Part shown: piece by piece, positions 13,128 to 31,291 of the stretch
Layout: each line of letters begins with the position of its first letter
Numbering within the stretch: position 1 is the first letter of the stretch
Source of the DNA: a virus
Taxonomy: Duplodnaviria > Heunggongvirae > Uroviricota > Caudoviricetes
DNA: 64,000 nucleotides
Strand: one strand, 5' to 3'
Virus record (IMG/VR): IMGVR_UViG_2795385890_000001
Translations under genes and position numbers: made by a program
The notes under the pieces: generated by a model
The model's database searches: none
The model's input: the letters and a program-made list of their open reading frames with translations, nothing else
What the model was told of the DNA's origin: nothing

Positions 13128-13130
13128 ACA

Positions 13131-13586: not shown

Positions 13587-13936
13587 GCGCCAACAACTGG
13601 ACTACCTGCTACGCCTGCCAGACCCGGCGTGCCGATGCTAACGACGAACGAATTGCCGAGCAGCGGAAGCTCATCGAAGACGCGTACGGACAGGTGTCAC
13701 AGGAGGAATACGACAGCCTTCGCGGCCGCCTGGAGAGTGCCATTGCAGAGATCGAAGCAGCCCCACTGAGTCAGACCTTCCGCGAAGACTACGAGATCCA
13801 CGGCGCAGAAACCGGTGTCGTAACAGTCAGTTACGGCGGTAGCTGCACCGTATGCGGCTACGGGACAGCGTTCGAGGAACAGCACCCCATCGAGGCCCGC
13901 GAGCTGCACTCCGTGAGAGAGAACCGCCATGGGTGA
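13583..13936 (+). CDS. Hypothetical Cys-rich protein
   Basis: GTG start overlapping the upstream stop. Motifs CYACQ...CTVCGYG. Confidence 0.4.
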   Translation: MSANNWTTCYACQTRRADANDERIAEQRKLIEDAYGQVSQEEYDSLRGRLESAIAEIEAAPLSQTFREDYEIHGAETGVVTVSYGGSCTVCGYGTAFEEQHPIEARELHSVRENRHG

Positions 13937-14867
13937 CAGGACCGGCATCGAATGGACCGATGCCACATGGAATCCCGTAACCGGCTGCGACAAGGTTTCT
14001 CCCGGCTGCGATCACTGCTACGCCGAGACGTTTGCCGAGCGTTGGCGCGGCACGCCGGGGCACTACTTCGAGAGCGGGTTCGATGTGCAGCTGCGACCGG
14101 ACAAGCTCGACTTGCCCCTGCGCTGGACCAAACCGCGCAAGGTGTTCGTCAACTCGATGTCAGACCTGTTCCACGACAAGGTGCCTGACGAGTACATAGC
14201 CCGCGTGTTCGCCGTCATGGCCCTCGCGCCACGACACACTTTCCAGCTGCTAACCAAACGCCACGGCCGCATGCACGCGCTCCTCGGATCTGAGAGGTTC
14301 CCGGGCCTCGTGTACATGGCCATCAACGCACTGCTGGAACACGGTAACCCGCTCCACATCAACGATGTGGCGATCATGGCGGCACTCGACGGCTTCTCTC
14401 GGGGGCGGTTCAAGGTGCTACCCAACGTCTGGTTGGGCGTGAGCGCCGAGGATCAGAAGCGCGCCGACCTACGCATTCCGGCCCTGCTGGATACCTCGGC
14501 AGCCGTGCGGTTCGTCAGCGCCGAGCCGCTCCTCGGGCCGCTGGACATCGCGCGGTTCGCTGAGCACGATGACGCCAAGTACGACGTGCCACCTCTCAGC
14601 TGGGTGATAGTTGGCGGCGAATCCGGTCCTGGCGCAAGGCCGATGCATCCCGAATGGGCTCGCTCGCTACGCGATCAGTGCGTAGCCGCTGGCGTGCCGT
14701 TCCTGTTCAAACAGTGGGGCGAGTGGACACCGAACACAGGACATCAGTACCGGGATTGGGCCAATCTCAGTGATCCCCATGCGTTCGTCATGCGCGTCGG
14801 CAAGAGGCGCGCCGGGCGGGAGCTGGATGGGCGCACATGGGACCAATACCCAGGGGCGGTTGCGTGA
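13929..14867 (+). CDS. Phage Gp37/Gp68-family protein (DUF5131)
   Basis: N-terminus IEWTDATWNPVTGCDKVSPGCDHCYAETF is the hallmark of the Gp37Gp68 family. Confidence 0.6.
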   Translation: MGDRTGIEWTDATWNPVTGCDKVSPGCDHCYAETFAERWRGTPGHYFESGFDVQLRPDKLDLPLRWTKPRKVFVNSMSDLFHDKVPDEYIARVFAVMALAPRHTFQLLTKRHGRMHALLGSERFPGLVYMAINALLEHGNPLHINDVAIMAALDGFSRGRFKVLPNVWLGVSAEDQKRADLRIPALLDTSAAVRFVSAEPLLGPLDIARFAEHDDAKYDVPPLSWVIVGGESGPGARPMHPEWARSLRDQCVAAGVPFLFKQWGEWTPNTGHQYRDWANLSDPHAFVMRVGKRRAGRELDGRTWDQYPGAVA

Positions 14868-15508
14868 TGACGACTGTCTGGTTCGTCTCCGACCTACATA
14901 TCGGGCACGCGCTCGTCGCTGTGATCCGGGCAGAGCGCGCCGGTATCGCCCTGCCGGCCAACCCTGTGGATCGGCAACTCGCGGCTATCGAGTGGCATGA
15001 CCAGACCTTGGCGGAGAAGTGGGATGCCATCGTTCACCCCGGAGACCAGGTATGGGATCTGGGGGACAACAGCTCTGGAACCAACACCGCCCAGATGAAG
15101 TCTCTTGCGTGGCTGTACCAGAGGCCGGGCGAGAAGCACCTGGTTCCGGGTAACCATGACCGGTGCCACCCGATGTACCGCGACGCCCACAAGTGGCAAC
15201 GCGACTACCTCCAGGTGTTTCAGTCGGTGCAGCCGTTCGCGCGGCGCCGTATCGGCGGCCGAACCGTTCTCATGTCGCATCTGCCTTACCTGGGCGACCA
15301 CACCACCGCTGAGCGGTACAACCAGTACCGGCTCCGCGATGAAGGCGCATGGCTTCTCCACGGCCATACCCACAGCACCGCAAGCTATCTGCCGTACGTA
15401 CACCAGCGTCAGCTCCATGTCGGAGTGGATGCCTGGAACCTAGCGCCAGTCGGTATCGACACCCTCGCAGAAGGCATCGAGTTCCTTGAACGGGGTGATG
15501 CGTCGTGA
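14867..15508 (+). CDS. Calcineurin-like metallophosphoesterase
   Basis: Phosphoesterase motifs VSDLHIGH, GDxxD(LGDN), GNHD, GHTHS. ATG shares a base with the upstream TGA. Confidence 0.65.
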   Translation: MTTVWFVSDLHIGHALVAVIRAERAGIALPANPVDRQLAAIEWHDQTLAEKWDAIVHPGDQVWDLGDNSSGTNTAQMKSLAWLYQRPGEKHLVPGNHDRCHPMYRDAHKWQRDYLQVFQSVQPFARRRIGGRTVLMSHLPYLGDHTTAERYNQYRLRDEGAWLLHGHTHSTASYLPYVHQRQLHVGVDAWNLAPVGIDTLAEGIEFLERGDAS

Positions 15509-15990
15509 ACGCCGCCGATGTGCTTGCCGCGCTGCGTAAACACCACCGGGACGCTGCGCTAGTACCCGAAGTGGTGATACACGATGACCACCCAATCTGG
15601 GCTGAGCTGCCCGATGGGCATGGGCAGCCCTACACACGCCGGATAGACGCGCTGATGTTCGACAGCTTGGAACGCACCGCGATTGAGATCAAAGTCTCCA
15701 AAGCCGATGCCGCAAAGGAGACCTGGGAAAAGGTCCAACCGTGGCGCCGGGTGTGCCACAGATTTGTGTATGCGGTACCGGCTGGGCTCATAGAGCATCC
15801 GCCTGTCTACGGGTGCGGGCTGTGGTGGATCCACGACCCGACCCCTTTGTATCCGCATGGTCGCGTCGAGGTGCGCCGCAAAGTCTCGATCAACAAGACA
15901 CCTGAGCAGTTGCCACAGCACGTAATACAGGCCCTCGCGTACCGGGCGGCGGGCGTAGCGAGCATCAAGAGAGCGGGGAATACACCATGA
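15505..15990 (+). CDS. Putative PD-(D/E)xK-fold nuclease-like protein
   Basis: RIDALMFDSLERTAIEIKVSKAD has a D...E-x-K arrangement. GTG start coupled to the upstream stop. Confidence 0.4.
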   Translation: MNAADVLAALRKHHRDAALVPEVVIHDDHPIWAELPDGHGQPYTRRIDALMFDSLERTAIEIKVSKADAAKETWEKVQPWRRVCHRFVYAVPAGLIEHPPVYGCGLWWIHDPTPLYPHGRVEVRRKVSINKTPEQLPQHVIQALAYRAAGVASIKRAGNTP

Positions 15991-16409
15991 CCGACACCCC
16001 TCCAATGCCGGTAAGACTGGATGGCCGCGTGACCGTATCCGAGGGAGAGCTAGCCAACTTGGTTCGGCTGCTGCGCGAGACGGTGGACGACTCATGGCTG
16101 GCGGTCAACTTCAAGCCGGACTACGGCGCTGGCCAGACCAAGAAGATCGATACGAAAGCGGCTCAAGCTCTTGCGATCTCGCTCCTACAGCGGATCAATT
16201 CCACGCGCCTCGGGCACGCCGAGGGCACCGTCGCTACCCATGGGGATGGGCGGCTCGCCCGCCGCTACTACTCGGACGCTGAGCAGCGGTTGACATGGCT
16301 CGTGGTCCAGCCGCCGAGCGACAAGCGGGTGGAAGTCGAAAGTGGTCCCGAGCTCCCCGGCCTCGGCTGGAAAGTCCGCGACGACAAGCCGTGGCAGGTA
16401 GTCCGGTGA
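15987..16409 (+). CDS. Hypothetical protein
   Basis: ATGA-coupled ORF. Confidence 0.45.
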   Translation: MTDTPPMPVRLDGRVTVSEGELANLVRLLRETVDDSWLAVNFKPDYGAGQTKKIDTKAAQALAISLLQRINSTRLGHAEGTVATHGDGRLARRYYSDAEQRLTWLVVQPPSDKRVEVESGPELPGLGWKVRDDKPWQVVR

Positions 16410-17113
16410 CCGCCTACACGTTCAACGTTGAGCCGCCCAAGCACGGCTCGCACATCGAGTTCTACGCGGAGGAGCGGGGGTGCCTGCCGGCCACACCGAA
16501 CCTGGAGCGCGCGAGCCTCCAGAACGCGGTGTTGTTCGGCGGCCCTGCGGTGCGGCGCTGCCTGGAGCAAGCCCCGATTGTCGGTGATCACAAGCACGTG
16601 TTCGTGGACACGAAGGTATCCCTGCTACTGCCGGGTTTCATCCCGGCGATACCGGGCTGGCACACCGATGGCGTTCCACGTCTCCACACCGTGACGGAGA
16701 AGGTCGGTTCACCGTTCAACGCTGGCCCTCCATCTATGAACGCTCAGGGCGCCCAAGAGGCGAAGGGGTACCGGCCCCGGTTCCACACCATCCATGTCGG
16801 AAACCACTGCCCAACAAGGTTCATGCGCAAACCGTGGGTCATTGACCTGGAACATGGCGAGGACTCGGGCCTGTATCGCGAACTGTCTCAAAAGGTTGAG
16901 AGCGCGCCATATTCCGAGCGAGGCGCGTATCTGGATTCTCCGCTGGAGCAGTGGCTTTCGTGGAGTTGGTGGAACGTCCACACCGCGACGCCTGCGGATT
17001 GGCGTGGATGGCGGCTCCTCATCCGGGTGACGGAATCAGACCAGCCCCCGTTGGATTCGGGATTCATCCGGTCCCAGACGCAGGTGTACGTACCCACGGA
17101 GTTCGGCTGGTGA
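16406..17113 (+). CDS. Hypothetical protein with HxD...H motif (possible cupin / 2OG-Fe(II) dioxygenase-like fold)
   Basis: IPGWHTDGVP (HxD) and FHTIHVGNH downstream could form a 2-His-1-carboxylate metal site. GTG start coupled to the upstream stop. Confidence 0.35.
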   Translation: MTAYTFNVEPPKHGSHIEFYAEERGCLPATPNLERASLQNAVLFGGPAVRRCLEQAPIVGDHKHVFVDTKVSLLLPGFIPAIPGWHTDGVPRLHTVTEKVGSPFNAGPPSMNAQGAQEAKGYRPRFHTIHVGNHCPTRFMRKPWVIDLEHGEDSGLYRELSQKVESAPYSERGAYLDSPLEQWLSWSWWNVHTATPADWRGWRLLIRVTESDQPPLDSGFIRSQTQVYVPTEFGW

Positions 17114-17141
17114 ACAACAACAAGACGGAAGGGGAGCGGTA

Positions 17142-18080
17142 GTGCCTCGCGAGTACGGGCGTATGTGGTTCTCGATGTGGACCGATGAGGACTTCTGCGC
17201 GCAGGAGGTGTTCGACAAGCTCCTGTTCTGTGTGCTGATCGCACAACCGGCCATGAACTACGCCGGGGTGCAGCCGATCAACATGCGGCGCTGGCGGAAG
17301 GCCCTTCGCCAGCGCGGGCGCATACCCCAGGAGTCCGCCGTCGAGGAGGCCCTGGTCCGGCTGGAGCGCAGCCGGTACGTGTTCACCGACGAGGACACCG
17401 GGGAGACCTTGGTGCGGTCGTTCATGCGCCGAGACGAGGTCGGAAAGCAGCCCAACGTGATGCTGTCCGCGCTCCGCTCGGCGGCCCATGTGGAGTCGCC
17501 GAAACTCGCGTATGTCCTCGCCGGGGAACTGGAGCGGGTACCGCTGCCCTCCATCGCGGGCGAAAGCCCGAAGGCGTTGAAGCTCCGTGACAACTTGAAG
17601 CGGGCACACGCGGAAGCGTTGGCGCACTTGGGAACCCTTACCCAAGGGTTATCGGAACCCTTTCCTGAACCCTTTGGAGAAGGCTTTGATGAAGGGTTAC
17701 CGGAAGGGTTCACGCCACCTGGGGAAATGGAACCCTTCCCAAAACCCTTTGGAGAAGGGTTCGCGTCAGGGTCGGGTCAGGGTGAGGGTCAGGGTGTTAT
17801 CTCACCTTCCGTAGGTACCTGGTTTGGGGAGCGCTCCGCGCCGCCCCCCGAATTCTGCCCAAAGCACCCCGGCGGCACCGACGACCCGTGCCGCGCATGC
17901 CAGCGCCACCGAGAACGCCGCGAAGCCTGGGACGCCGAACGCCCCGCCCGTGAGAAAGCCGAACGCCGCGCCCGCATCGCCGCCTGCACCGAATGCGGGG
18001 GACGCGGCTGGATCGACAACGACCACGACAGCCTCCGCCGCTGCCAATGCAACCCCGAAGCACCCAAGGAGTCCGCATGA
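17142..18080 (+). CDS. Module protein A1: N-terminal DNA-binding-like domain, repeat-rich linker, C-terminal double CxxC zinc ribbon (paralog of 22296..23240)
   Basis: About 35-40% identical to A2 along its length (DEDTGETLVRSFMRRD / DEDTEELLVRSYIRND; CPKH...CTECGGRGWI / CPKH...CTRCQGGGWI). Linker PFPEPFGEGFDEGLPEGF... encoded by AACCCTT/AAGGGTT repeats. Confidence 0.55.
   Translation: MPREYGRMWFSMWTDEDFCAQEVFDKLLFCVLIAQPAMNYAGVQPINMRRWRKALRQRGRIPQESAVEEALVRLERSRYVFTDEDTGETLVRSFMRRDEVGKQPNVMLSALRSAAHVESPKLAYVLAGELERVPLPSIAGESPKALKLRDNLKRAHAEALAHLGTLTQGLSEPFPEPFGEGFDEGLPEGFTPPGEMEPFPKPFGEGFASGSGQGEGQGVISPSVGTWFGERSAPPPEFCPKHPGGTDDPCRACQRHRERREAWDAERPAREKAERRARIAACTECGGRGWIDNDHDSLRRCQCNPEAPKESA
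17637..17770. repeat. Array of 8 short direct/inverted repeats AACCCTT / AAGGGTT inside gene A1 (iteron-like)
   Basis: GGAACCCTTTCC, TGAACCCTTTGG, GAAGGGTTACC, GGAAGGGTTCAC, GGAACCCTTCCC, AAAACCCTTTGG, GAAGGGTTCGC plus CCAAGGGTTATC within about 130 bp. Confidence 0.5.
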
Positions 18081-18721
18081 CGAGCTACCCCACGAACATG
18101 ACCCTGCGCCCGATCACCGCCTGGCCGCACCAGCTCACCCAGGAACGCCGCCGCTCGAACTTCTCCGCGCAGTGGAGCGAAACCCTCAACCTGCTCGACC
18201 GGGAACTCTGGTATCTCGGGAGCGGCAGGCAGAACGCGTCAGCCGTCCTCCAGATCGCGATGCGTGAGCAAGACTTCCGCATGGACGGGATGCCCCGCGC
18301 CACAGCCAAACCCGAGCACCCCGGCGTCATCCTGAACGTCGAATCCCGCACAGGGCCACTGTCGTTCCCCTGCGACACCTTCACCAACTGGCAGGACAAC
18401 CTCCGCGCCATCGCCCTCGCGCTCGAAGCGCTCCGCAAGGTGGACCGTTACGGCGTCACCCAAACCGGGCAGCAGTACGCCGGGTGGAAGCAACTCCCTT
18501 CCGCAGGAGCTCCAGCCCCCGGAGGCCAATCCGCCGATGACGCTGAACTCCACCTCCGGCTTGCCGCTGGCGACAAAAATTCGCCGCTCGACAAGGTCTA
18601 CCGAGCCGCACGAGCTAGAGCCCACCCGGACCGCAACAGCGGGGACCGTTCCGCGTGGGACGCCGTCGAGGCCGCCGCTGCCGTGCTCCGCGCCTTCGGG
18701 CGCCTCCAGGACCAGCGGTGA
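18077..18721 (+). CDS. J-domain (DnaJ-like) protein
   Basis: C-terminus KVYRAARARAHPDRNSGDRSAWDAVEAAAAVLRAF has the J-domain helix II-HPD-helix III signature. ATGA-coupled. Confidence 0.5.
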   Translation: MTSYPTNMTLRPITAWPHQLTQERRRSNFSAQWSETLNLLDRELWYLGSGRQNASAVLQIAMREQDFRMDGMPRATAKPEHPGVILNVESRTGPLSFPCDTFTNWQDNLRAIALALEALRKVDRYGVTQTGQQYAGWKQLPSAGAPAPGGQSADDAELHLRLAAGDKNSPLDKVYRAARARAHPDRNSGDRSAWDAVEAAAAVLRAFGRLQDQR

Positions 18722-18894
18722 ACGCCCGCGACGAGGTCTGCGCCGGCAGCGGCAAGGTCCCGCTCACCCGACCGCGCAAAGGCCGCGCCTACTGCCCCAC
18801 CTGTCAGCGCTCGTACCGCATCCGCCGCGACGGCGTTATGCCACTCCACCAGAAGCAACGACCCAACCAACCAGCAGCCAAGGAGAACCGATGA
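18718..18894 (+). CDS. Small zinc-ribbon protein (58 aa)
   Basis: CAGSGKV...CPTCQRSY; GTG start coupled to the upstream stop. Confidence 0.35.
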   Translation: MNARDEVCAGSGKVPLTRPRKGRAYCPTCQRSYRIRRDGVMPLHQKQRPNQPAAKENR

Positions 18895-19505
18895 GCACCA
18901 CCACAGGACCGAACAACCACCGATGGCTGCGGAAGTGGCTCCGGCTGGAACCCCACCAGCCCATCGGCGCCGAAGGCGAACCCCCATACCTGCTGCGCTG
19001 GTACGTGATCCCGAGGAACCGCTGGCTGAACGTCTACCTCCACAAGTTCCTACGCGACGACGAAGACCGCGCCCTACACGATCACCCGTGGTGGTTCGTT
19101 TCCATCGTCCTGCGGGGCAGCTACACCGAAATGACACCCACCGGTGAGCGCCGCCGCCGCGCCGGTTCCGTCGCCTTCCGCCCGGCCAAGTGGCGGCACC
19201 GGGTCATCCTCGACAAGACCCTCCAGGAAGTCGGCGAGCTCGAAGCGGGCGGTCGGAGGCCACCGCGCGTGCGGCTATGGAACACCGGGCGCATCCCCTG
19301 CTGGACCCTGATCATCACCGGGCGGCGGAGGCGGCTCTGGGGATTCTGGTGCCGCCGACTGGTTGACACATGGTCAGCGGAAACCTACGACGATCGGGAC
19401 AGGATCGTCGCCTCCACTGACGGTCAGGTCGAGGTCGAACGATTCATCCCGTGGGATGAGTTCGGGGCCGCCGGATGCGGTGAGCCGGTCAGGAGCGACC
19501 GATGA
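18891..19505 (+). CDS. Hypothetical protein with conserved LHDHPWWF motif
   Basis: MSTTTGPNNHRWLRKWLR...LHKFLRDDEDRALHDHPWWFVSIVLRGSYTE; ATGA-coupled. Confidence 0.45.
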   Translation: MSTTTGPNNHRWLRKWLRLEPHQPIGAEGEPPYLLRWYVIPRNRWLNVYLHKFLRDDEDRALHDHPWWFVSIVLRGSYTEMTPTGERRRRAGSVAFRPAKWRHRVILDKTLQEVGELEAGGRRPPRVRLWNTGRIPCWTLIITGRRRRLWGFWCRRLVDTWSAETYDDRDRIVASTDGQVEVERFIPWDEFGAAGCGEPVRSDR

Positions 19506-19735
19506 CCCAGCCGACCCACGAAGGCGCCAGCGCCGCGCCGGAGGCCATACAAACCGCCTTCCAGGAAGGGATCGACCTCGGGCTGCAACTGGCGCGTCTG
19601 TCGCTCTCCGACGTAGCCGACTACGAGGAGACCGCCGAGGACGGCGGACCGGTCATCGCCGACCGGCTGCGCAAGTACGTGACCGTCCTATCCTCGATGC
19701 CCACGACCTACCCGCCCTACGCCGGGGCTCAATGA
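19502..19735 (+). CDS. Hypothetical small acidic protein
   Basis: ATGA-coupled ORF. Confidence 0.4.
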   Translation: MTQPTHEGASAAPEAIQTAFQEGIDLGLQLARLSLSDVADYEETAEDGGPVIADRLRKYVTVLSSMPTTYPPYAGAQ

Positions 19736-20142
19736 TGGTGGAACGGTTGTCGGAGGCTCGGATTCAGGCGCTCATTGCCTCAGAGCTGCCAGAACTGAAC
19801 GGGCAGTTCCAAGGCCATCGAACCGGATGCCAGTGCGCCGCACACTATGACGGACCATGCCCGAACGCCGCCGTCTACGTGATTGAGGCCCACGCGACCG
19901 ATGAATGCAAGGGCGACGGCGTCAACGAGTTCGGCAACTGGGTGATCTTCATGTGCCATGAATGCGCTACCCAAATGGTCATCAAAATCTGCATGGACGT
20001 AGCTTCACGCGGCCTCCACGCGATTCTCACAGGTCGCGATGAATCCCTGCGCTGCGAAACATGCGAAGCGCCGATAAGGAACCACCGGGACATCTTGCGT
20101 TCGGTACGCCCGTACGAGGAGGTGTTCCCTGATGGAGCGTGA
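19732..20142 (+). CDS. Module protein B1 (Cys-rich; paralog of 23434..23838)
   Basis: Shares ..LN.QF.G.R..CQ...H.C..P...V...H..D.C.G....EFGN.V....C..CA.....C..C.AP...I.R.VR.YEEVF with B2. Confidence 0.5.
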   Translation: MMVERLSEARIQALIASELPELNGQFQGHRTGCQCAAHYDGPCPNAAVYVIEAHATDECKGDGVNEFGNWVIFMCHECATQMVIKICMDVASRGLHAILTGRDESLRCETCEAPIRNHRDILRSVRPYEEVFPDGA

Positions 20143-20365
20143 CTGGACACCAGAACAGTTGGGGCTCTGGCGGATACGGAAATCCTTGAAGGGGGAGCGC
20201 CCGCCGTGGCCTGAGCTGCCCCCACTACCCGGCGTCATTCCGACACCCCGTTGGTGGATATGGCGGCCCGGCCAGCTGAAACCCATGGCCGCGTTCGATT
20301 CCCAGCCTGACGCACTCGGCTGCGTCTACGACATCCTGGCGATAGAGAGCAGGAGAAAGACGTGA
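20132..20365 (+). CDS. Module protein C1 (paralog of 23828..24145)
   Basis: RDWTPEQLGLWRIRKSLKGERPPW vs REWTPEQLKRWRIRKAQNGEQTPW in C2. Confidence 0.45.
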   Translation: MERDWTPEQLGLWRIRKSLKGERPPWPELPPLPGVIPTPRWWIWRPGQLKPMAAFDSQPDALGCVYDILAIESRRKT

Positions 20366-21264
20366 CCGCAATGGTATTGGTCGCACTCGCCGCCTTGGCG
20401 CTGGTCGTGTTGTGCAACGTTGCATGGCTCCTCGTCTGGAGCCGGAAGCGTGACAACCCCGGTCCGAACCGGGTTCAGGTGGCTGGCGACAACTCCACAC
20501 AGATATCCGGCACCAACATCACCATCACCGCCGTGAACGGCTCCCTCGCTGCCCACACCATCGACGGCGCCGTCACGATCGGCCAAGGGCAGGCTTCGAC
20601 ATCTCCGCTCAGGGCTGGAATCACGCGGGATGGCCGGTGCTGGGAACAGGCACCCGCATGTGCGTGTGGTTCAGAAGCGTGCCGTGGGCATCCGTCAACG
20701 ATTCAACCTGCCCTCGTTACCAATTTGTACGCCAAGAGCCTCCAGGAGGCTCTCGCCCGAGGCCCGAACGGGCTCGCCAAATCCGACACGATTCGCCCCC
20801 AGACACCGTGGGAACGGCAGCTCGCGGAACAGCAGGAAGGACCCCCGCACTTGGATGACCGCCCCGGACTGGCGGCCATCCTCGCTGGCCTGTACCGAGT
20901 CCAAAGTATCGCGGCCACTTTGAAGATGGGACCAGCCGTCCAGCACGTAGGTGAGCTTCCTGCTGGTCTGTCCTTGAAAGACAAGAACACCTTGTTCTAC
21001 GACGAGACTGAGCGGTGCGGATACCTCTGGACCGGTACACGTTTCGTTATCGAGGGTGCCGAGGCCAGACCTGAGCAACCAGCACCACCCGAGTTCCTAC
21101 TCGGCTACGCCAGCCCCATCCCGGTACGTGAGTTCAAAGCCACCTGCAGCTGCCCTCGCTGCGGCTGGGTGGATGCCCACTACCTCCACACCATAGACCT
21201 GCCCGAAGGCGCCACCATCGGCCGCGAATGCACCAACTGCAAAATGCAGTGGGGTGAGAAATGA
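20362..21264 (+). CDS. Module protein D1: N-terminal TM helix, QISGxNxTITA..GSxAAHTI segment, C-terminal CxCPRCG zinc ribbon (paralog of 24142..24753)
   Basis: Conserved blocks with D2: (V)GDNS.QI.G..ITI.A..GS.AAHTI.G.V and C(S/A)CPRCG....HY....REC..C...W. Confidence 0.5.
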   Translation: MTAMVLVALAALALVVLCNVAWLLVWSRKRDNPGPNRVQVAGDNSTQISGTNITITAVNGSLAAHTIDGAVTIGQGQASTSPLRAGITRDGRCWEQAPACACGSEACRGHPSTIQPALVTNLYAKSLQEALARGPNGLAKSDTIRPQTPWERQLAEQQEGPPHLDDRPGLAAILAGLYRVQSIAATLKMGPAVQHVGELPAGLSLKDKNTLFYDETERCGYLWTGTRFVIEGAEARPEQPAPPEFLLGYASPIPVREFKATCSCPRCGWVDAHYLHTIDLPEGATIGRECTNCKMQWGEK

Positions 21265-21695
21265 TCGCCCACACCCCGGATTCAATCTGGCTGGAACGCA
21301 ACGGGAAACGGTGGCCTATATCCTTCAACCTCTTCTATCAGAAGGATGAACTACCGACTCTCGTCCTGCTTGACACCCTCCACCCCGGAGATCGGATAGA
21401 GCTACCAGGCATCACCACAGAGAGGCCCGCTTGGGTCGATGTTGGAGTTTGGCCCCCTGGTTCTCCTGAGGGTGACAGCGGTTGGTTCATGAGGAAGACG
21501 CATCCATATCGAATCCCGATGGTGTTCAACTCGTTTGACACCTGCCCCGCCTGCGCGACGGAAACAGTCCACCTCATCGAGGTGCCCGAACTCGAAAGAT
21601 TCTGCGACACCGGCTGGGGCGGATGCCCGGTGCGCCGGTATCTCCTTCGCACCTGCATCACCTGTGCCAATTCATGGGAACAGGAGGCCACGTGA
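21261..21695 (+). CDS. Module protein E1 (zinc-binding; paralog of 24750..25202)
   Basis: Shared RNGK(R/K)WPI.F.L......L.DTLHPGD...LP...T......VWPP......W.(M/A)RKTHPYRI....F.(S/A)FDTCP.C......E.P.......RRY.LRTCITC.NSWEQ. Confidence 0.5.
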   Translation: MIAHTPDSIWLERNGKRWPISFNLFYQKDELPTLVLLDTLHPGDRIELPGITTERPAWVDVGVWPPGSPEGDSGWFMRKTHPYRIPMVFNSFDTCPACATETVHLIEVPELERFCDTGWGGCPVRRYLLRTCITCANSWEQEAT

Positions 21696-21916
21696 GCCTT
21701 TCAGTCGATCTAACGGTAAACGGGCTACTGGTCGGTCACGTGGACATCAAGTGCGTTGAGTGGAGCGATTACACGGACACCCGAGGCTACGAATATTCCG
21801 TGACTAGCAGCGACCGAGCGGAACCGGCATCCGGGAGGGTCGATCACTACCACCGCGACGGCGCCCTCGCACTCGTGCACAAGGTGCTCGCCGACTACCT
21901 CGGGGTGAGTAAATGA
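21692..21916 (+). CDS. Hypothetical protein
   Basis: GTG start overlapping the upstream stop; in frame with track ORF 21623..21916. Confidence 0.35.
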   Translation: MSLSVDLTVNGLLVGHVDIKCVEWSDYTDTRGYEYSVTSSDRAEPASGRVDHYHRDGALALVHKVLADYLGVSK

Positions 21917-22293
21917 GCCCACAACGTATCCAGCGGAAACGAGTCAAGGGCTGGAACAAACCAGAAGGCGCCATCATCGTCACCAGGCCGTCCCGATGGG
22001 GCAACCCGTTCAAGGTCGTACCCGCAGGAACAGAGCCCGGCCTATTCAGCCGCCGCCGCGAACGGGTCTGGACCGTCGAGGGTCCCGGAACGTTTTTCCA
22101 GGGCACCGGGACACGTGAATGGGCAGCCGCCTACGCGGTGCGGCTTTACCGCCGCTGGCTCCTCGGCTCCATGAAGCGCGTGGAGGACCTGGTGCCACTT
22201 CTCCGAGGCCACGACCTCTGCTGCTGGTGCCGACTCGACGCCCCCTGCCACGCGGACGTCCTACTAGAACTAGCCAACCAGAAGGAGATATAG
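21913..22293 (+). CDS. DUF4326-family phage protein
   Basis: RPSRWGNPF...LRGHDLCCWCRLDAPCHADVLLEL matches the conserved DUF4326 core. Confidence 0.5.
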   Translation: MSPQRIQRKRVKGWNKPEGAIIVTRPSRWGNPFKVVPAGTEPGLFSRRRERVWTVEGPGTFFQGTGTREWAAAYAVRLYRRWLLGSMKRVEDLVPLLRGHDLCCWCRLDAPCHADVLLELANQKEI

Positions 22294-22295
22294 CT

Positions 22296-23240
22296 GTGCC
22301 GCGCGACCATGGTCGGATTCTGACAATCATATGGCGGGACAAAGACTTTCAGCAGCGATCCGTCGAGGCGCAGCGCATGTACATGCTCCTGTTGTCGCAA
22401 CCGAATGTGAACAATGCCGGTGTCCTGCCGCTGCAACTAAGCAAGTGGGCGAAGGGCTGCGACCAGACCAGCGTCGCCGATGTACGCCGCGCTACAAACG
22501 AACTCGCCGAGCACCTCTATGTGGCATACGACGAGGACACCGAGGAACTGCTGGTCCGCTCGTACATACGCAACGACGGCGTGCTCAAGCACAAATACCT
22601 GTTCGCTAACGCTCTGAAATGCGCCCAGGCCGTCGAATCACCCAGCCTGCGTGCGGTGCTGGCGGCCGAGTTGCGGCGCACCCGTCGTGCCGATGCGGTG
22701 ACGGTCGCCAACCAGATCGACCCATCTGGCCCCGGGCCAGACGGCACCCCGACTGACCCAAGGCCGGACGACGACCCAACGCCCCCAGACAGTGACCTCG
22801 ACGGCATTTCGATGCCATCCGAAACCGACCCCAATGGCATCGAAAACCCATCGCAATCCGATGTGCCATTGGAATGCCATTCCGATGGCATCGCGATCAC
22901 TAGGGGGAAGGGGAAGGGGAGGGGGAAGGGGTCACCTTGGGTAGGTGGTTACGTTGGGGAGGCGCCCACCCGCTGCCCCAAGCACATCAACGACCCGCAC
23001 CCCCCAAACTGCCGCGACTGCATGACAGTCCGACTGGCATCCGAGGCAGCCGCCCAGGAGACAGCTGAACGTCAGAAGTCAGACCGGGCAGCAGCGCTAG
23101 CCCGACGCGAGGCGTGCACCCGCTGCCAGGGCGGCGGCTGGATCGAGGCCGACGACGGTTCCGGCGTCCTGCCCTGCACGTGCCGTAAACCCCTACAGCT
23201 CGTCCCACGACCCACCGACGACCAGAGGGTGGCCGGATGA
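22296..23240 (+). CDS. Module protein A2 (paralog of A1 17142..18080)
   Basis: See A1. GTG start 3 nt after the upstream stop. Linker PSETDPNGIENPSQSDVPLECHSDGIAITRGKGKGRGKG is encoded by ATGCCAT/ATGGCAT repeats. Confidence 0.55.
   Translation: MPRDHGRILTIIWRDKDFQQRSVEAQRMYMLLLSQPNVNNAGVLPLQLSKWAKGCDQTSVADVRRATNELAEHLYVAYDEDTEELLVRSYIRNDGVLKHKYLFANALKCAQAVESPSLRAVLAAELRRTRRADAVTVANQIDPSGPGPDGTPTDPRPDDDPTPPDSDLDGISMPSETDPNGIENPSQSDVPLECHSDGIAITRGKGKGRGKGSPWVGGYVGEAPTRCPKHINDPHPPNCRDCMTVRLASEAAAQETAERQKSDRAAALARREACTRCQGGGWIEADDGSGVLPCTCRKPLQLVPRPTDDQRVAG
22797..22895. repeat. Array of 6 short inverted repeats (A)TGCCAT / ATGGCA(T) inside gene A2 (iteron-like), followed by a GGGGAAGGGGAAGGGGAGGGGGAAGGGG run
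   Basis: ACGGCATTTCGATGCCATCC, CAATGGCATCG, GATGTGCCATTGGAATGCCATTCCGATGGCATCG. The position matches the A1 repeat array, but the repeat sequence is different. Confidence 0.5.
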
Positions 23241-23449
23241 ACGCCAGCGAGAACACGACGGCCCCTCAGCCAGAGATCTTCCACGAGTACGCGCGGCACA
23301 ACATGCTCCGGCAGATCACCCTCGCTGAGATCGACATGAAGCGGGCCACTGTTGCCATCGGAGACAAGGAGGCACAGGACCTGCTCAAGTCGGCGTCCTG
23401 GCACCTGTACGAGGCTTTCAGGGCGATTGGCGGGTGGCAGTGGCCATGA
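23237..23449 (+). CDS. Hypothetical protein
   Basis: ATGA-coupled ORF between A2 and B2. Confidence 0.4.
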   Translation: MNASENTTAPQPEIFHEYARHNMLRQITLAEIDMKRATVAIGDKEAQDLLKSASWHLYEAFRAIGGWQWP

Positions 23450-23838
23450 CCGACGGTCGGCTCACCGACGAGCAGATCGCGGCGCTTGTCGAAACCCAGC
23501 TGGTCGGACTCAATGACCAGTTCATCGGCCGACGCCCCACCTGCCAGCACCCACAACACACGTGCAAGCGGCCGGTCACCGCAGTCGTCTCGGTACACGT
23601 CCTGGACAACTGCGACGGCGAGGAGGCCGACGAGTTCGGCAACGAGGTGTTCCTGTTGTGCACGAATTGCGCACGGGCGCTGTGGATGGCGGCCCAGTGG
23701 GAGGTACGCGACCGCACCGTCGCCGCCACCCGTGCTGGCGTCATACCCATGTGCTCTACCTGCCAGGCGCCGGTGGTCAAGCCATCGCACATCGTCCGCG
23801 ATGTACGCAAATACGAGGAGGTTTTCAATGCACCGTGA
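23434..23838 (+). CDS. Module protein B2
   Basis: Paralog of B1 (see 19732..20142). Confidence 0.5.
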   Translation: MAVAMTDGRLTDEQIAALVETQLVGLNDQFIGRRPTCQHPQHTCKRPVTAVVSVHVLDNCDGEEADEFGNEVFLLCTNCARALWMAAQWEVRDRTVAATRAGVIPMCSTCQAPVVKPSHIVRDVRKYEEVFNAP

Positions 23839-24145
23839 GTGGACCCCGGAGCAGCTAAAGCGTTGGCGCATACGCAAAGCGCAGAACGGCGAACAGACAC
23901 CCTGGCAGCGCCGGGACTGGTCCGCGCTGCCCGACGACGTCCTGACCGCGTCGCCGCAATGGTGCATATGGCGGCCCTGGGAGCAACACCCCATCGCTTG
24001 CGTCGACACCCAGCAAGACGCCATACGGCACGTCATCCTCCAGTTGCAGAGCGCGTACCTACGCGCAGCTGAGCGGGAGCACCTGGAGCGACAGGGCATG
24101 GAGCTAGCACGCATCAACAACCGGCCGCGGGGGTTGGCGTCGTGA
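23828..24145 (+). CDS. Module protein C2
   Basis: Paralog of C1; in frame with track ORF 23486..24145. Confidence 0.45.
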   Translation: MHREWTPEQLKRWRIRKAQNGEQTPWQRRDWSALPDDVLTASPQWCIWRPWEQHPIACVDTQQDAIRHVILQLQSAYLRAAEREHLERQGMELARINNRPRGLAS

Positions 24146-24753
24146 GCGTGCTTCTTGAGGCCCTGGCGCTATTTATTGCGGCTAGTGGCGGATTCACCGC
24201 GTACCTGTTGTCGCTCGGGCATCGCCGACGCGGCAACCAGATCCAGATCTCCGGCGACAATTCCGTCGCGATCCAGACTGGTGGGACCATCACGGTGCAG
24301 GCCAGTAGCGGCAGCATCGCCGCCCACACCATCGTCGGCGACGTGAACGTCGGTGGTGAGCGCTGGGTCGGAGTCGAACCGAACCCACTACGGCGCGCAC
24401 TACTTGCCCGCTCCGGTCCAGGCCAACCGCTGTACATGTTCGGCGAGGTCGACTCCTACGACGAGTTGCCCGGCATGGTCAACGCAGCCACCGACCACAT
24501 CGGCAAGTGGTGGTGGGACCGCACGAGCGAGGTCGCATACCTCTGGCTCGGTCAGGGATACAAAGTCCTAGGTGCACCCGAGATAGCCAAACCGACACGG
24601 CCCGACACCTACCGCTTATCCGAGTTCGTCGCACAATGCGCCTGCCCCCGTTGCGGATTCATCAACACCCACTACATCCAGCCATGCACCCAGGACCCCG
24701 GCTCGGTTACCCGGGAGTGCACGGAGTGTGGACAGACTTGGAGGCAGCAATGA
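24142..24753 (+). CDS. Module protein D2
   Basis: Paralog of D1; shorter central region. Confidence 0.5.
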   Translation: MSVLLEALALFIAASGGFTAYLLSLGHRRRGNQIQISGDNSVAIQTGGTITVQASSGSIAAHTIVGDVNVGGERWVGVEPNPLRRALLARSGPGQPLYMFGEVDSYDELPGMVNAATDHIGKWWWDRTSEVAYLWLGQGYKVLGAPEIAKPTRPDTYRLSEFVAQCACPRCGFINTHYIQPCTQDPGSVTRECTECGQTWRQQ

Positions 24754-25202
24754 CCTATCAGACCGTTCGCCTGGACGATCAGACCACCCCAGTTGCGTTG
24801 CACCGCAACGGTAAGAAGTGGCCAATACCGTTCCGCCTGAACCTCGCACACGACGACTTCATCCGCGCCAGGCTGACCGACACCCTGCACCCCGGCGACA
24901 TCCTGGACCTGCCCTTCAACGTCACCGGCACCATAGTGGAGATCGCCGTATGGCCGCCGAAAGCCCGCGACAACGACGGCCACTGGTTCGCACGCAAGAC
25001 CCACCCATACCGAATCGCCCTGCAATTCCACGCCTTCGATACCTGCCCTCAATGCCACACCCAGGCAGCACACCAGGTCGAGATACCCGAATATGAGACG
25101 TGGTGGGACAGCCCGCTAACCGCCGACTTCCCGCACCGCAGGTACGTCCTCCGCACCTGCATCACATGCCGCAACTCATGGGAACAGGACGAGGCGCAGT
25201 GA
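24750..25202 (+). CDS. Module protein E2
   Basis: Paralog of E1. Confidence 0.5.
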   Translation: MTYQTVRLDDQTTPVALHRNGKKWPIPFRLNLAHDDFIRARLTDTLHPGDILDLPFNVTGTIVEIAVWPPKARDNDGHWFARKTHPYRIALQFHAFDTCPQCHTQAAHQVEIPEYETWWDSPLTADFPHRRYVLRTCITCRNSWEQDEAQ

Positions 25203-25504
25203 GCAGCGCAGGCGCACCGGTCCTATGCGGCTGCGGCCACTACACCCCGGACGTGGCCATGGTGTTGCAAGGCTACGGCTGGACGTGCCCCGGGTGCGGG
25301 CGCCGCTGGGTCAAACACCAGGGCCGCATCTGGTTCCTGGACCCAGGACAAGAGCTGCCCGTAACAGCCTGCCTCAAATGCGGCCAACAGATTGACGACG
25401 ACCAACGATGCATACCCGTCCTAACCGGGCCACCCGTGCCAAACGTCCTCGTACCCAACCACGACTACATCCACCTCTACTGCCTGATAGGAGTAACCCT
25501 GTGA
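25199..25504 (+). CDS. Zinc-ribbon protein
   Basis: CGCGHYTP...CPGCGRRW...CLKCGQQ; GTG start coupled to the upstream stop. Confidence 0.4.
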   Translation: MSSAGAPVLCGCGHYTPDVAMVLQGYGWTCPGCGRRWVKHQGRIWFLDPGQELPVTACLKCGQQIDDDQRCIPVLTGPPVPNVLVPNHDYIHLYCLIGVTL

Positions 25505-26538
25505 CGCAACGTGATCCGCACCGCTGCGCGTTCGGACACCGCTGCGTAAACCACGACTGGTCAACCGTCGTTGACGAAGATGACGCACCCTCCGGCCAAC
25601 TCATTGCCGACGGTGTGATCTGCGGCGGCTGCCTAACCCGCCTCCGGTACGCCGTCAACGGCCTACCCCGGGACTGGGACCGGCTCCACGAAGGCATCGG
25701 GGAACGCGTGTATGTCGACCGAGCACGCGTCACCATGACCTCCACCGCAGCCATCAACCTCAACACCCAACGCGACGCCCTCCAACGCGACATCGTCGAG
25801 ACCGCCGACCGGGCAGCGGAAATGGTGGAACACGCGATGAACCTGACCGGCAGGCAGCGTCACGGCCGCCAGGGCTTCACTGTCCACCAACGTCAGGTAG
25901 TCGCCCGCTCCGTCGCCGTGGTCAGCGAAAACCTGGACGTACTCCTCGCCCAGCCCGCCCAACCCATGCTCGTCTGGGGCCGAGTACCCGACGGCGACGA
26001 GGGCTGGCATCCCCAGCACGGACAACCCCGCCACCTCGTAGACCGCGACGGCGTCGACATCGCCCTCCAACTAATCGAGCTGTCCCGCAACGTCTACCAG
26101 GCCCTCGGACTACCCCGACTACGCCACCACTCCGCCATGCCCTGCCCCGCAGTAAAACGGGACGGCCAGCAGTGCGGCGCCTACACCGTCGGCCGCTGGG
26201 ACGGCACCAGCCAATACGACTGCACCACCTGCGGCCGAACATACGGCGAACGGGAATACCCCTGGCTCCAGCGCGGCGTCATCGACCTCATGCGCGAACT
26301 CGAAGAACGGGAGAAAAACATGCAACTACTCGACCAACTCAAACACCTACTAGCCGAGGCATACTGGCGCCTCGACGGCATCAACGACATGGTCCAGCGT
26401 GTCGCCGACGAGCCACTGCTGGACGAGGCGGGCGCCGGACGACTGGTCGTCGACAAGGTGACCACGATCCTCAACGACGGGCTGGTACCGCACCAGACAC
26501 CCGAGCAGCGGCAGACCACACCGTCGGGCGGCAACTGA
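25501..26538 (+). CDS. Hypothetical protein with N-terminal Cys/His cluster
   Basis: 345-aa ORF, GTG-coupled; HRCAFGHRCVNHDW...CGGCLTRL; C-terminal coiled-coil. Confidence 0.45.
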   Translation: MTQRDPHRCAFGHRCVNHDWSTVVDEDDAPSGQLIADGVICGGCLTRLRYAVNGLPRDWDRLHEGIGERVYVDRARVTMTSTAAINLNTQRDALQRDIVETADRAAEMVEHAMNLTGRQRHGRQGFTVHQRQVVARSVAVVSENLDVLLAQPAQPMLVWGRVPDGDEGWHPQHGQPRHLVDRDGVDIALQLIELSRNVYQALGLPRLRHHSAMPCPAVKRDGQQCGAYTVGRWDGTSQYDCTTCGRTYGEREYPWLQRGVIDLMRELEEREKNMQLLDQLKHLLAEAYWRLDGINDMVQRVADEPLLDEAGAGRLVVDKVTTILNDGLVPHQTPEQRQTTPSGGN

Positions 26539-26894
26539 TGGGCGTGCAGACGGTCGTCAGCACGATCTACAAATGCGACCGGTGCGGGTCCGAGTCCACC
26601 AGCTCCCGGGACTATGAGCGCGGCGCCCACGCAGGCGCCAAGGGTGAGAAGTACTGGTGGTGCGCCGCCTGCTACACCGCCTTCCTCCGTTTCGCCGCCA
26701 ACGAGGGCACCACGCAGGAGGTCTGGCTGGGGTACCAGGGCGACGGCACCGCCCTCCAGGGCGGCTCCCGGCTGCAAGTGGTGTTCGGCGACGAGAGCAC
26801 GGCCCAGGCGTGGTATTCAGGGCTGGAGCCGGGGTCCTGGGACTACCGCAGCATCACCCGGCACAAGGTCGTCAGCGCGGGACAAACCCCGTGA
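26538..26894 (+). CDS. Zinc-ribbon protein
   Basis: YKCDRCGS...WWCAACY; ATG shares a base with the upstream TGA. Confidence 0.45.
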   Translation: MGVQTVVSTIYKCDRCGSESTSSRDYERGAHAGAKGEKYWWCAACYTAFLRFAANEGTTQEVWLGYQGDGTALQGGSRLQVVFGDESTAQAWYSGLEPGSWDYRSITRHKVVSAGQTP

Positions 26895-27244
26895 CCGGCG
26901 CCGCGGTCGAGGACCTGGAGGTCCTGGAGACCCGGGTCTACCGCCGGTACGCCCAGGCAGTCGCCGCCAGCATCCCCGCTATGCCGGACTTCTCCCACTG
27001 GCTGGACATGCTGTCCGCGCCAACCAAGTACACCGTCGACACCGCGCTGGTATGCCCCGGCACCGTCACACAGGTTCCGCAGTTCCCGCCCGAATGCTGG
27101 ATCACGTACCCAGCCCGGCGCCGCGTGTCGCTGATGCTGGCTGACGAGATGCTCAACCGCATCAACGGCGGCAACACCGCGCACGACTGGCTCGCCATGG
27201 CTGGCATCCTGTTGACCTTCGGGGGACGGAGCCGCGAGGCATGA
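26891..27244 (+). CDS. Hypothetical protein
   Basis: GTG-coupled ORF. Confidence 0.4.
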   Translation: MTGAAVEDLEVLETRVYRRYAQAVAASIPAMPDFSHWLDMLSAPTKYTVDTALVCPGTVTQVPQFPPECWITYPARRRVSLMLADEMLNRINGGNTAHDWLAMAGILLTFGGRSREA

Positions 27245-27328
27245 AACCGCGTACCCGGCACCTGCTTCCATGGACCCCAGAGACGGGACATACCAACGTG
27301 TGCCGCAGCCCAGCGATAGGGCACGACT

Positions 27329-27754
27329 ATGACTGATCAGAAGGTTTGGAAGTGGACCGGCGACAGCCGCGAGGACAAGGCGAAACGTGTCGCCCTGTCC
27401 TATCGCCAGCTCCTTGAAGACGTGGCCGCCGGACGCATCACCGACCCCATGCAGGCCCTCATCGAACGCGACAGGTACTGGCAAGACCTCGGCGTCTACT
27501 GGGCGGTGCCATCCGTCGCCCCTGTCGACCAGGAGGCGTGGTTGTCGGCCGCCGACCTCGTCATCCACCTCGCCCACATCGTCCAACTCACCGAGCACCA
27601 GGTCCGAAACTGGGCATACCGGCGACGAAAAGGACTGGGCGACGGCATAACCGAGCGCACCGGACAGGAAGGCAAACCGGAATACAACGTCGCCGACGTG
27701 CTGTCCTACCTGACCCGTCAACGCGTCCGCCGACAGGGAGGCACCAGCGCATGA
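27329..27754 (+). CDS. Putative HTH (Xis/MerR-like) DNA-binding protein
   Basis: LSAADLVIHLAHIVQLTEHQVRNWAYRRRKG resembles an HTH_17 recognition helix region. Confidence 0.4.
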   Translation: MTDQKVWKWTGDSREDKAKRVALSYRQLLEDVAAGRITDPMQALIERDRYWQDLGVYWAVPSVAPVDQEAWLSAADLVIHLAHIVQLTEHQVRNWAYRRRKGLGDGITERTGQEGKPEYNVADVLSYLTRQRVRRQGGTSA

Positions 27755-28095
27755 TCTGGGAACTATGGGCAACCCCGTCCGGCCAGATCTTCTGGCAGCT
27801 CGACAACTGGGGTGGCTTCTACAAATGCGAACCACCCACCGGCGGCCGCGAGACGGTGGATACGCTGCCCGCCGACGCCCGGCCACTGATCAACGACGGC
27901 AGGTGGATCACCGGCGTCATGGACGCCGCCGAAGACGAGGCCCAACGCCGCATCCTGGAGCCCGACTGGCCAACCCAACGTGTAGAACGCCCCTACGAGA
28001 AAGCCCAGCGCCTGCGGTTTGAGCGGTACATGGCAGAGGTCAAGAGCATGACCGCAGCGGCAATCGCCACACCCCAGAATGGCGGAACATCATGA
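27751..28095 (+). CDS. Hypothetical protein
   Basis: ATGA-coupled ORF. Confidence 0.4.
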   Translation: MIWELWATPSGQIFWQLDNWGGFYKCEPPTGGRETVDTLPADARPLINDGRWITGVMDAAEDEAQRRILEPDWPTQRVERPYEKAQRLRFERYMAEVKSMTAAAIATPQNGGTS

Positions 28096-28556
28096 CCGGC
28101 ATCGCCTTCGTTGACGTGACCCTGGCATGGAAACGCATCGAGGATCGTTGGCACAAGGGCCGCTGGTTGTGGGTCGCCCACCACCGCGACGACACCGGTG
28201 GGACGTACACCCTGTTGCCGCGGACAGCGGCGGCGGATACAAGCCCCCGGAGGACCCGGAATGCCCCGAGGGCCAGCACCATCCACCTACAGCTCCGGCA
28301 AGTCATGGCACAGGCGAAACTGGAGGTAACAGCGCTGGTAGCGGGTCTGGCGGTAGCGGTGGGTCCTCGGCGAGTGGAGGGGCTGGCACCGGACGGTGAT
28401 GGTCGCGGCTACCGAGCGGCTATACAGCCAAGCCCCAATCCTGTTGCCGCACCGCTATACCGCGGTATAGCTTCGTTTTCAGACAACAAAACAACGGACG
28501 ACGTGAACAGGATGCAGGTCGGTTATCTCGGGGTACGCCCCCGTAGTTCAAGTTAG
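28092..28556 (+). CDS. Hypothetical protein (only the N-terminal ~70 aa look protein-like; true stop uncertain)
   Basis: ATGA-coupled start. Distal half is low-complexity and overlaps the palindrome/terminator at 28455-28480. Confidence 0.25.
   Translation: MTGIAFVDVTLAWKRIEDRWHKGRWLWVAHHRDDTGGTYTLLPRTAAADTSPRRTRNAPRASTIHLQLRQVMAQAKLEVTALVAGLAVAVGPRRVEGLAPDGDGRGYRAAIQPSPNPVAAPLYRGIASFSDNKTTDDVNRMQVGYLGVRPRSSS
28455..28470. terminator. 16-bp perfect palindrome CTATACCGCGGTATAG followed by TTCGTTTTC (terminator-like; related to the palindrome at 31514)
   Basis: AT-containing perfect palindrome in GC-rich DNA, with a T-run 3' of it, immediately upstream of the tRNA-like repeat array. Confidence 0.4.
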
Positions 28557-28615
28557 AACGCCCCGAGCCAAGCGGGGAAATGGAGCCAAACCCGCCCAGC
28601 GCCAACCACGTTCAC
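28503..28615 (+). ncRNA. Degenerate Y-RNA-like repeat unit 0 (conserved 5'/3' helix elements present, tRNA-like arms decayed)
   Basis: Starts with the conserved block GTGAACAGGATGCAGGTCGGTTATC and ends with CACGTTCAC, which pairs with the 5' GTGAAC. Internal arms are not canonical. Confidence 0.3.
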
Positions 28616-28654
28616 GTCGTACCCCAGACCACAACTACATAGACACCAGATGGT

Positions 28655-28780: not shown

Positions 28781-28817
28781 CCCATCACCCAACACAACTC
28801 CATACACGCATCGGGGT

Positions 28818-28953: not shown

Positions 28954-28987
28954 GCCCCCTGACACAACTCCATAGACGCAGCACGGT

Positions 28988-29115: not shown

Positions 29116-29154
29116 ACCGCCTCAAACGCCAGCAGACGCACGCGCGCAGGCGGT

Positions 29155-31285: not shown

Positions 31286-31291
31286 GAACGC

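Follow-up and report, generated by a model that had tools for sequence, protein, structure and literature searches.

The DNA analysed here is a window of 64,000 nt from a tailed-phage record (IMG/VR IMGVR_UViG_2795385890_000001), and it makes up the first 64 kb, at the left end, of a Mycobacteroides abscessus prophage that belongs to cluster MabK (contig FSLV01000003.1 of GCA_900138275.1). Its early region carries two tandem copies of a five-gene module, A-B-C-D-E, in which gene A encodes a replication initiator. Sequence comparison makes it very likely that the two are orthologous early-region modules of two diverged phage lineages, which were stacked in one genome by a very recent homologous recombination. 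A first-pass annotation of the same DNA had offered two explanations for the tandem, an ancient duplication that has since become sub-functionalised or the mosaic gain of a second cassette with a related phage as its source. The latter could be sharpened to the replacement of a homologous patch of 13.2 kb, and the former had to be given up, as each module together with kilobases of flank is 100% identical at the nucleotide level to a different single-module phage.

Both parents could be found among sequenced relatives. Aligned to the Logan contig ERR2524344_99, which carries one module of the first kind (type 1), positions 8944–22160 of the window show 0 mismatches in 13,217 nt. Aligned to the Logan contig ERR494950_47, which carries one module of the second kind (type 2), positions 9–8843 and 22147–28226 show 0 mismatches as well, and positions 28227–33386 are 100% identical by BLAST. 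Taken as one piece, the right arm (22147–33386) differs from this contig by one mismatch in 11,240 nt, at 28227, where ERR494950_47 has 1,812 extra nt; the left arm 9–8843 is 100% identical to the type-2 parent contig (L043). At the right junction the last site discordant with type 2 is 22146 and the first site discordant with type 1 is 22161, which places the exchange in the 14-nt tract TACCGCCGCTGGCT inside a DUF4326 gene. An alignment of six sequences confirmed that the parent switches inside this gene, whose 5' two-thirds are type-1 and whose 3' third is type-2. It is the best-conserved gene of the region, with about 85% identity between the parents, and the identical runs shared by them reach about 17 bases at most and 14 at the junction. 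The left junction lies in the band-7 gene at about 8830–8955, where sites informative for type 1 and type 2 alternate in at least five short patches. Such an alternation is expected either of heteroduplex mismatch repair or several template switches, or of true parents that are slightly unlike the sampled ones.

From the sequence the following course of events can be read. A type-2 phage acquired 13.2 kb of type-1 DNA as one patch, with the left exchange in the band-7 gene (~8830–8955) and the right exchange in the 14-nt tract of DUF4326, and lost about 8.7 kb of its own backbone in return. As type-1 phages have the DUF4326 gene behind the module and type-2 phages have it in front, the incoming DNA added module 1 along with four extra genes while module 2 was kept. 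Genes B–E, which are backbone genes of their lineage, were doubled only through their position between the two DUF4326 sites. RecE-like and RecT-like genes (6370–8471) are located just upstream of the left junction, and this pair may have catalysed the exchange. One report describes phage recombinases that recombine diverged sequences (PMC3945230), and another describes recombinants of two temperate mycobacteriophages obtained in the laboratory (PMC10700106).

The two modules themselves are homologous gene by gene, with gene order and strand conserved. BLASTP gave 33% identity for A1/A2 (317 columns, E 8e-34), 37% for B1/B2 (E 1e-24), 47% for C1/C2 (E 2e-17) and 50% for E1/E2 (E 9e-47), and for D1/D2 two matching segments with 43% (E 2e-10) and 29% (E 1.6e-13), so that the five pairs span E values of about 1e-10 to 1e-46 and an identity range of 29–50% in place of the 30–40% first proposed. 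No match between genes of different letters was better than E 0.005. Since global alignment scores for all five pairs lie 13–27 standard deviations above composition-preserving shuffles, the homology extends over the full length and is not confined to CxxC motifs, the finding that would have spoken against paired modules. At the nucleotide level only short collinear remnants are left between module 1 and module 2, the best with 68% over 194 nt in E. All ten open reading frames of the modules are intact and run along the + strand, where stop codons overlap with the starts that follow them. The annotation had also counted four extra genes between A and B in copy 1 (18077–18721, 18718–18894, 18891–19505 and 19502–19735) and a single 70-aa gene (23237–23449) in copy 2, and the gene calls of relatives agree with both. 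For B2 the start at 23446, as called in relatives (130 aa), is more likely than the one at 23434.

To see whether relatives carry one copy or two, 22 loci were surveyed by tblastn, comprising 6 distinct type-1 loci, 12 type-2 loci, one of a third type (L025) and phages of cluster Y, Bipper among them. Tandem modules were present in none of the 22, every relative surveyed having a single module. Likewise, a second copy of the initiator was not seen in any phage record, as all 309 records with a tblastn match to A1 have it at one place each; E matches nine phage records and B the same nine, again at a single place each. The Mycobacterium phages prophiGD43A-5, a cluster MabK prophage of M. abscessus (PMC8092301), and prophiT37-1, with both of which the window aligns from their base 1, have the copy-2 module only and a DUF4326 gene ahead of it. 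Contigs reached via relatives of E1 have the copy-1 module only, with a 74-aa gene and DUF4326 next in line. The complete order in type-1 phages is gene34 – A1 J x2 x3 x4 B1 C1 D1 E1 – 74aa – DUF4326 – gene43, where J and x2–x4 are the four extra genes, and in type-2 phages gene34 – DUF4326 – A2 y1 B2 C2 D2 E2 – gene42 – gene43, where y1 is the 70-aa gene. In the cluster-Y phage Bipper B and C (gp86, gp87) are split from D and E (gp93, gp94), and DUF4326 (gp95) comes after E. A scan with E of a genome-contig collection that probably holds one genome per species gave no match, and neither did an exact 108-nt string across the junction in IMG/VR.

An ancient tandem duplication in situ, kept by sub-functionalisation and followed by the loss of one copy in the single-module relatives, would fit the deep divergence of the copies and their ten intact reading frames. 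It is nevertheless hardly credible. Not only is each copy with its flanks 100% identical to a different single-module phage, with the switch inside one gene, but single-module type-1 and type-2 phages are present in several Mycobacteroides species, and a relative with two modules was found neither among the 22 loci nor, for the initiator, among the 309 records. The two copies therefore do not descend from one locus in one genome lineage. The identity to the parents also makes the joining very recent, leaving no time for sub-functionalisation, and as both copies have stayed free of substitutions from then on, their intact frames are no evidence of selection and say nothing in favour of an old duplication.

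We also considered that module 1 could be a self-mobile cassette, a satellite or insertion element with its own recombinase that inserted beside module 2. When the window is compared with prophiGD43A-5, the region 17117–21947 indeed resembles a clean insertion of 4.8 kb, but neither a recombinase nor terminal repeats nor a target duplication were seen, the import covers 13.2 kb, takes in some 20 ordinary backbone genes and is bounded on either side by a homologous exchange, and the module sits at the orthologous backbone position in type-1 phages. We therefore give this possibility next to no weight.

A chimeric assembly, in which two co-resident prophages were joined across their shared DUF4326 and band-7 genes, would need no recombination at all, and it is known that several prophages per M. 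abscessus strain are common (PMC8092301); both junctions also fall in genes that the two phage types have in common. However, the parental identity of no more than ~17 bases in DUF4326, and of 14 at the junction, is too short for a misjoin in a k-mer graph, and both joins are in frame. Moreover, the exact sequence of the chimeric DUF4326 protein is deposited as SIG30902.1, SIH56493.1 and WP_074376296.1, and that of a fusion protein encoded downstream (28092–28556) as SIG31137.1 and SIH56904.1. These two proteins as well as exact A1, E1, A2 and E2 occur in two separate NCBI accession series (SIG and SIH), and other series contain the proteins of one parent only. The longest contig with the recombinant proteins has 615,160 nt and includes host flanks; positions 1–15635 of the window are 100% identical to a sequence (L041) from contig FSLV01000003.1, with host genes to the left of the prophage. 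An assembly artefact is thus very unlikely. Some points do weigh against a single recent recombination between the two lineages. The left junction is patchy and has no single clean switch, the two assemblies that contain it may stem from clonal isolates put through the same assembly pipeline and would then not be fully independent, and the recombinant differs in size from its type-2 parent, having gained ~4.5 kb via the patch and carrying 1.8 kb fewer at 28227.

Gene A encodes a replication initiator whose organisation resembles that of lambda O and of the RepA_N initiators of Gram-positive plasmids. Both copies match phrog_3171 ('replication initiation protein') over their full length, A1 with E 1.3e-83 (residues 1–308) and A2 with E 1.4e-70 (residues 1–290), and this family corresponds to the 'RepA-like replication initiator' of SEA-PHAGES. 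With 309 phage records by tblastn and 212 database clusters it is a large actinobacterial prophage family, and no Pfam domain is assigned among the 120 A-family clusters listed. An AlphaFold model (AF2, 48 sequences) has an overall pLDDT (predicted local distance difference test) of 85, with values above 90 for residues 10–170, below 50 for 205–230 and of 85–95 for 232–305. The N-terminal domain is modelled as a winged helix with a RepA_N/DnaD-like fold, followed by a disordered stretch at about 180–230 and a confidently modelled C-terminal part (232–305) with a long helix and a Cys/His cluster. Against this assignment it has to be said that Pfam RepA_N (PF06970) did not match A1 or A2 at E values up to 0.1, and that a 48-sequence profile found no sequence homologue of A in the PDB at E ≤0.1. 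The label 'replication/regulation cassette' given to the module is thus justified for gene A only, as no function can be assigned to B–E.

Both initiator genes contain repeat arrays in their central part. In A1 the stretch that codes for the last part of the N-terminal domain and for the linker contains a local repeat cluster stronger than any other in the 64-kb window. All six exact copies of GAACCCTT in the window lie within 131 bp of A1 (aa 164–208), and together with three one-mismatch copies they form an array at 17632–17762, in both orientations and about 12 bp apart, a count that was reached by 0 of 200 codon shuffles. Codon usage in this region is unusual, with GAA for 8 of 8 Glu codons (37% in the background), two TTA codons (1 of 321 Leu codons in the background) and four TTT codons, and one copy of the repeat is read in a different frame and encodes G-T-L. 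These features point to a constraint on the repeats at the DNA level, and the repeats are conserved in relatives. A2 has a different array at the same relative position (aa 169–199), and both arrays fall within or beside the linker modelled with low confidence. In the A2 array four ATGSCAT cores and two variants are spaced by 11/22/29/11/11 bp and lie partly within CGATGSCATCG; 4 of the 11 ATGSCAT sites of the window fall within 80 bp here, along with inverted repeats and the top clustered 9-mer.

Codon shuffles (n=200) for ten members of the initiator family revealed a central repeat cluster in seven of them. The heptamer AACCCTT recurs in the central clusters of the Gordonia phages Jambalaya (gp60) and GAL1 (gp67) and of Thermobifida phage P1312 (gp087), whose initiators are 34–43% identical to A1 by tblastn, and Obliviate gp69 has the one-base variant GATCCCTT in its cluster. 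In prophiT49-1 gp32 and Mask gp84 it is GGGACCC that is found there. This recurrence suggests that a few types of iteron are conserved across the family. In addition, only two canonical G-quadruplex-type motifs exist on the + strand of the whole window, and each of them lies directly 3' of the A1 or A2 array. These G-run tracts encode Gly-rich linker peptides, and they might, instead or in addition, act through the DNA itself and help with unwinding or R-loop formation at a putative origin.

Most likely the arrays are the iterons of the origin cognate to each initiator. Since the repeats of A1 and A2 differ (GAACCCTT versus ATGSCAT) and their layout resembles that of pSK41 Rep and lambda O, the recombinant probably holds two initiator–origin pairs of different specificity. 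The earlier suggestion of two specificity types fits this difference as far as the internal repeats of the two A genes are concerned. The evidence is less favourable in two respects, as exact k-mer statistics give less support to the cluster in A2 (p 0.05–0.08 in codon shuffles) and three of the ten family members have no significant central cluster. If the repeats reflected only selection for a repetitive peptide linker, with the origin elsewhere, one would understand why they translate into recurring E-P-F and E-G-F tripeptides and why this linker pattern recurs in the family alignment. Such selection would account neither for motifs in both orientations with one copy out of frame (G-T-L) nor for rare codons throughout (GAA 8/8, TTA, TTT), nor for the same heptamer in Gordonia and Thermobifida phages at 34–43% initiator identity, and the region is predicted to be disordered. 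We consider this explanation unlikely, and prefer the arrays as origin iterons.

A bolder idea, which we regard as speculative and rather improbable, is that the recombinant is a working two-replicon phage, in which both pairs (GAACCCTT–A1 and ATGSCAT–A2) fire after induction and the B–E sets act as matched accessory factors. If so, such a phage could replicate with one type of origin blocked, for example when another MabK prophage resides in the same host or when a host defence titrates one of the two initiators. Also if true, the AACCCTT arrays in initiators of Gordonia, Thermobifida and Mycobacteroides phages would represent a general, portable class of origins in high-GC Actinobacteria.

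Table 1: Features of the two modules and their flanks (positions in the window).
Feature	Position	Strand	Remarks
Left crossover zone	8830..8955	+	inside band-7-like membrane protein gene, just 3' of RecE/RecT-like genes
Type-1-derived patch, 13.2 kb	8944..22160	+	0 mismatches/13,217 nt vs Logan ERR2524344_99 (L039/L027)
A1 initiator	17142..18080	+	RepA_N-like; winged-helix N-terminus, disordered linker, Cys/His C-terminal domain (model)
A1 putative origin repeats (iterons)	17632..17762	.	9 copies [G/T/A]AACCCTT, both orientations, ~12 bp spacing
G-run tract (G-quadruplex-type motif)	17769..17794	+	directly 3' of A1 repeats
214-aa protein, weak J-domain-like C-terminus (HPD)	18077..18721	+	phrog_9210
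58-aa zinc-ribbon-like protein	18718..18894	+	phrog_6601; gene call in L027
204-aa HDHPWWF protein, family labelled 'cysteine dioxygenase'	18891..19505	+	phrog_4786, E 6e-49
77-aa protein	19502..19735	+	gene call in relatives; without family match
B1, small multi-Cys protein	19732..20142	+	phrog_2857 family
C1, 77 aa, not Cys-rich	20132..20365	+	pairs with C2 (BLASTP)
D1, hydrophobic N-terminal segment and C-terminal zinc ribbon	20362..21264	+	read from sequence
E1, beta-rich protein, CPxC...CxxC zinc ribbon	21261..21695	+	BLASTP pair of E2
74-aa gene, next after E in type-1 phages	21692..21916	+	phrog_3491; gene calls
Chimeric DUF4326 gene	21913..22293	+	PF14216, E 1e-20
Right crossover tract TACCGCCGCTGGCT	22147..22160	+	14 nt, same in both parents
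Right arm from type-2 backbone	22147..33386	+	match to Logan ERR494950_47 (L029)
A2, second initiator, A1's family	22296..23240	+	phrog_3171; 33% identical to A1
A2 putative origin repeats	22801..22893	.	4 exact palindromic ATGSCAT cores and 2 variants
G-run tract	22903..22941	+	directly 3' of A2 repeats
70-aa gene between A2 and B2	23237..23449	+	gene calls in L029 and prophiGD43A-5
B2	23446..23838	+	start as called in relatives
C2	23828..24145	+	BLASTP pair of C1
D2	24142..24753	+	BLASTP pair of D1
E2	24750..25202	+	BLASTP pair of E1

The features of both modules are compiled in Table 1. The region 14–27 kb is without sigma-70-like promoters, terminator-like sites are not in excess there, and it probably forms one early operon. 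The statement that all module proteins are Cys-rich or of the zinc-ribbon type applies only in part, as C1 and C2 have 1 and 2 Cys, respectively, and the N-terminal half of A is modelled as a winged helix. The 214-aa protein had been called a J-domain protein, and an HPD motif is present, but its match to Pfam DnaJ (PF00226) stays below the cut-off of 27.8 bits with 14.1 bits for the full length and 16.9 bits for the C-terminal 73 aa; in Gordonia phage records its family is labelled 'DnaJ-like chaperonin'. The N-terminal hydrophobic segment of D is, judged from its sequence, a probable membrane anchor. The model of E is beta-rich, of moderate confidence and contains the zinc ribbon, and a structural search with it gave no informative match.

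B1 and B2 alone match phrog_2857 weakly (E 0.002), and among the B homologues found with HMMER 46 of 52 match this family (best E 1.4e-13); the B profile matches ~95 clusters at 50% identity. Obliviate gp70 (L005, 7080–7376), encoded directly after the initiator of this Gordonia phage, aligns with the B profile at 96% probability. The RefSeq label of gp70, like that of phrog_2857, is 'tail fiber protein'. For the B family this label does not look credible and looks like a propagated annotation error, because B is a multi-Cys/zinc-ribbon protein of 100–135 aa from the early region beside the initiator. A B homologue is also found near a differently typed Rep in Bipper. That B is a universal partner of the initiator was considered and rejected, as no B homologue was found beside the initiators of seven further family members (1.5–7 kb of flank).

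Locus L025 (IMGVR_UViG_2802429060_000011, 6080–10400) combines an A1-type initiator (97%) with a third type of B (37%) and E (44–50%), so that the initiator and the B–E genes reassort independently. The gene of the HDHPWWF protein is located between A1 and B1 in type-1 phages, and in type-2 phages a homologue with 59% identity precedes the module by ~6 kb (L001, 6485–7069), which makes it the second gene, besides DUF4326, with a lineage-dependent position. Downstream of the modules, every relative compared has extra DNA exactly at position 28227, where the window has none: 1,812 nt with five minus-strand genes in L029 and L031 and a BrnT-like toxin/antitoxin pair in prophiGD43A-5. The open reading frame 28092–28556 of the window is a fusion with a different C-terminus (SIG31137.1), and the position looks like a hot spot of accessory-gene exchange.

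A tRNA-Arg(tct) was called by ARAGORN at 28646–28724, and a search of Rfam gave no match to a tRNA or any other family at the gathering score within 14–32 kb. The call adjoins a Ro60/TROVE gene (29570–31285), and prophiGD43A-5 has a tRNA-Thr annotated at the equivalent place ahead of its Ro-like gene. With a Ro60 homologue beside it, the tRNA called in the window could belong to a Y-RNA-like RNA as its tRNA-like part.

With the arrays, among them a heptamer that several host genera have in common, the phages of a widespread family of actinophage initiators gain a candidate lytic origin that can be put to the test, which could aid the construction of replicons for Mycobacteroides, Gordonia and their relatives, and the recombinant itself is a natural construct for studying the interference between two origin specificities in one phage. 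It also calls for caution, as diverged tandem 'paralogues' in phage genomes need not be old duplications and orthologous modules can be stacked in one step.

Compared with known systems, the process is of a familiar kind, phage mosaicism by homologous recombination, seen here at unusual resolution. Related temperate phages, short and imperfect homologies, a block-wise mosaic and a RecE/RecT-like pair are all shared with it. Unlike in usual mosaicism, one of the genes used for the exchange, DUF4326, flanks the module from the right in one parent and from the left in the other, and the outcome is an addition and not a replacement. A further difference is that both parents have been sampled at 100% identity and the junction is resolved to 14 nt, so that the formation of a mosaic has been caught in the act, with the gain explained by a gene that changed sides.

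As for the initiators, the origin of pSK41 lies centrally in rep, and the Rep protein can do without its linker and binds DnaG through its C-terminal domain (PMC5703833). In contrast to RepA_N initiators such as pSK41 Rep (PDB 4PTA), A has no Pfam RepA_N match, its C-terminal domain appears to be a Cys/His metal-binding one, it belongs to an integrated prophage of high-GC Actinobacteria, and its repeats are 7–8 bp long and in both orientations and not four tandem Rep boxes. With lambda O and ori-lambda it shares iterons, putative in the case of A, inside the part of the initiator gene that encodes the inter-domain linker. In lambdoid phages different specificity types of O and iterons reassort as modules. 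Nevertheless, lambda O and A have no detectable sequence relationship, and a lambda P-like helicase loader was not identified beside A. For the RepA-like initiators of cluster A mycobacteriophages, which have parABS plasmid prophages, an origin in or beside repA was proposed by analogy to lambda and no repeats were found (PMC7157519); the A family differs from them by its integrating phages and clear intragenic repeats, a distinction drawn from the descriptions of both. Finally, 11% of the theta plasmids of S. aureus carry two initiator genes (PMC5703833), and like such multi-replicon plasmids the recombinant would have two initiator–origin pairs on one replicon after recombination or cointegration, with the difference that the carrier here is a phage genome and that both putative pairs belong to the same family and lie 5 kb apart in what is probably one early operon.

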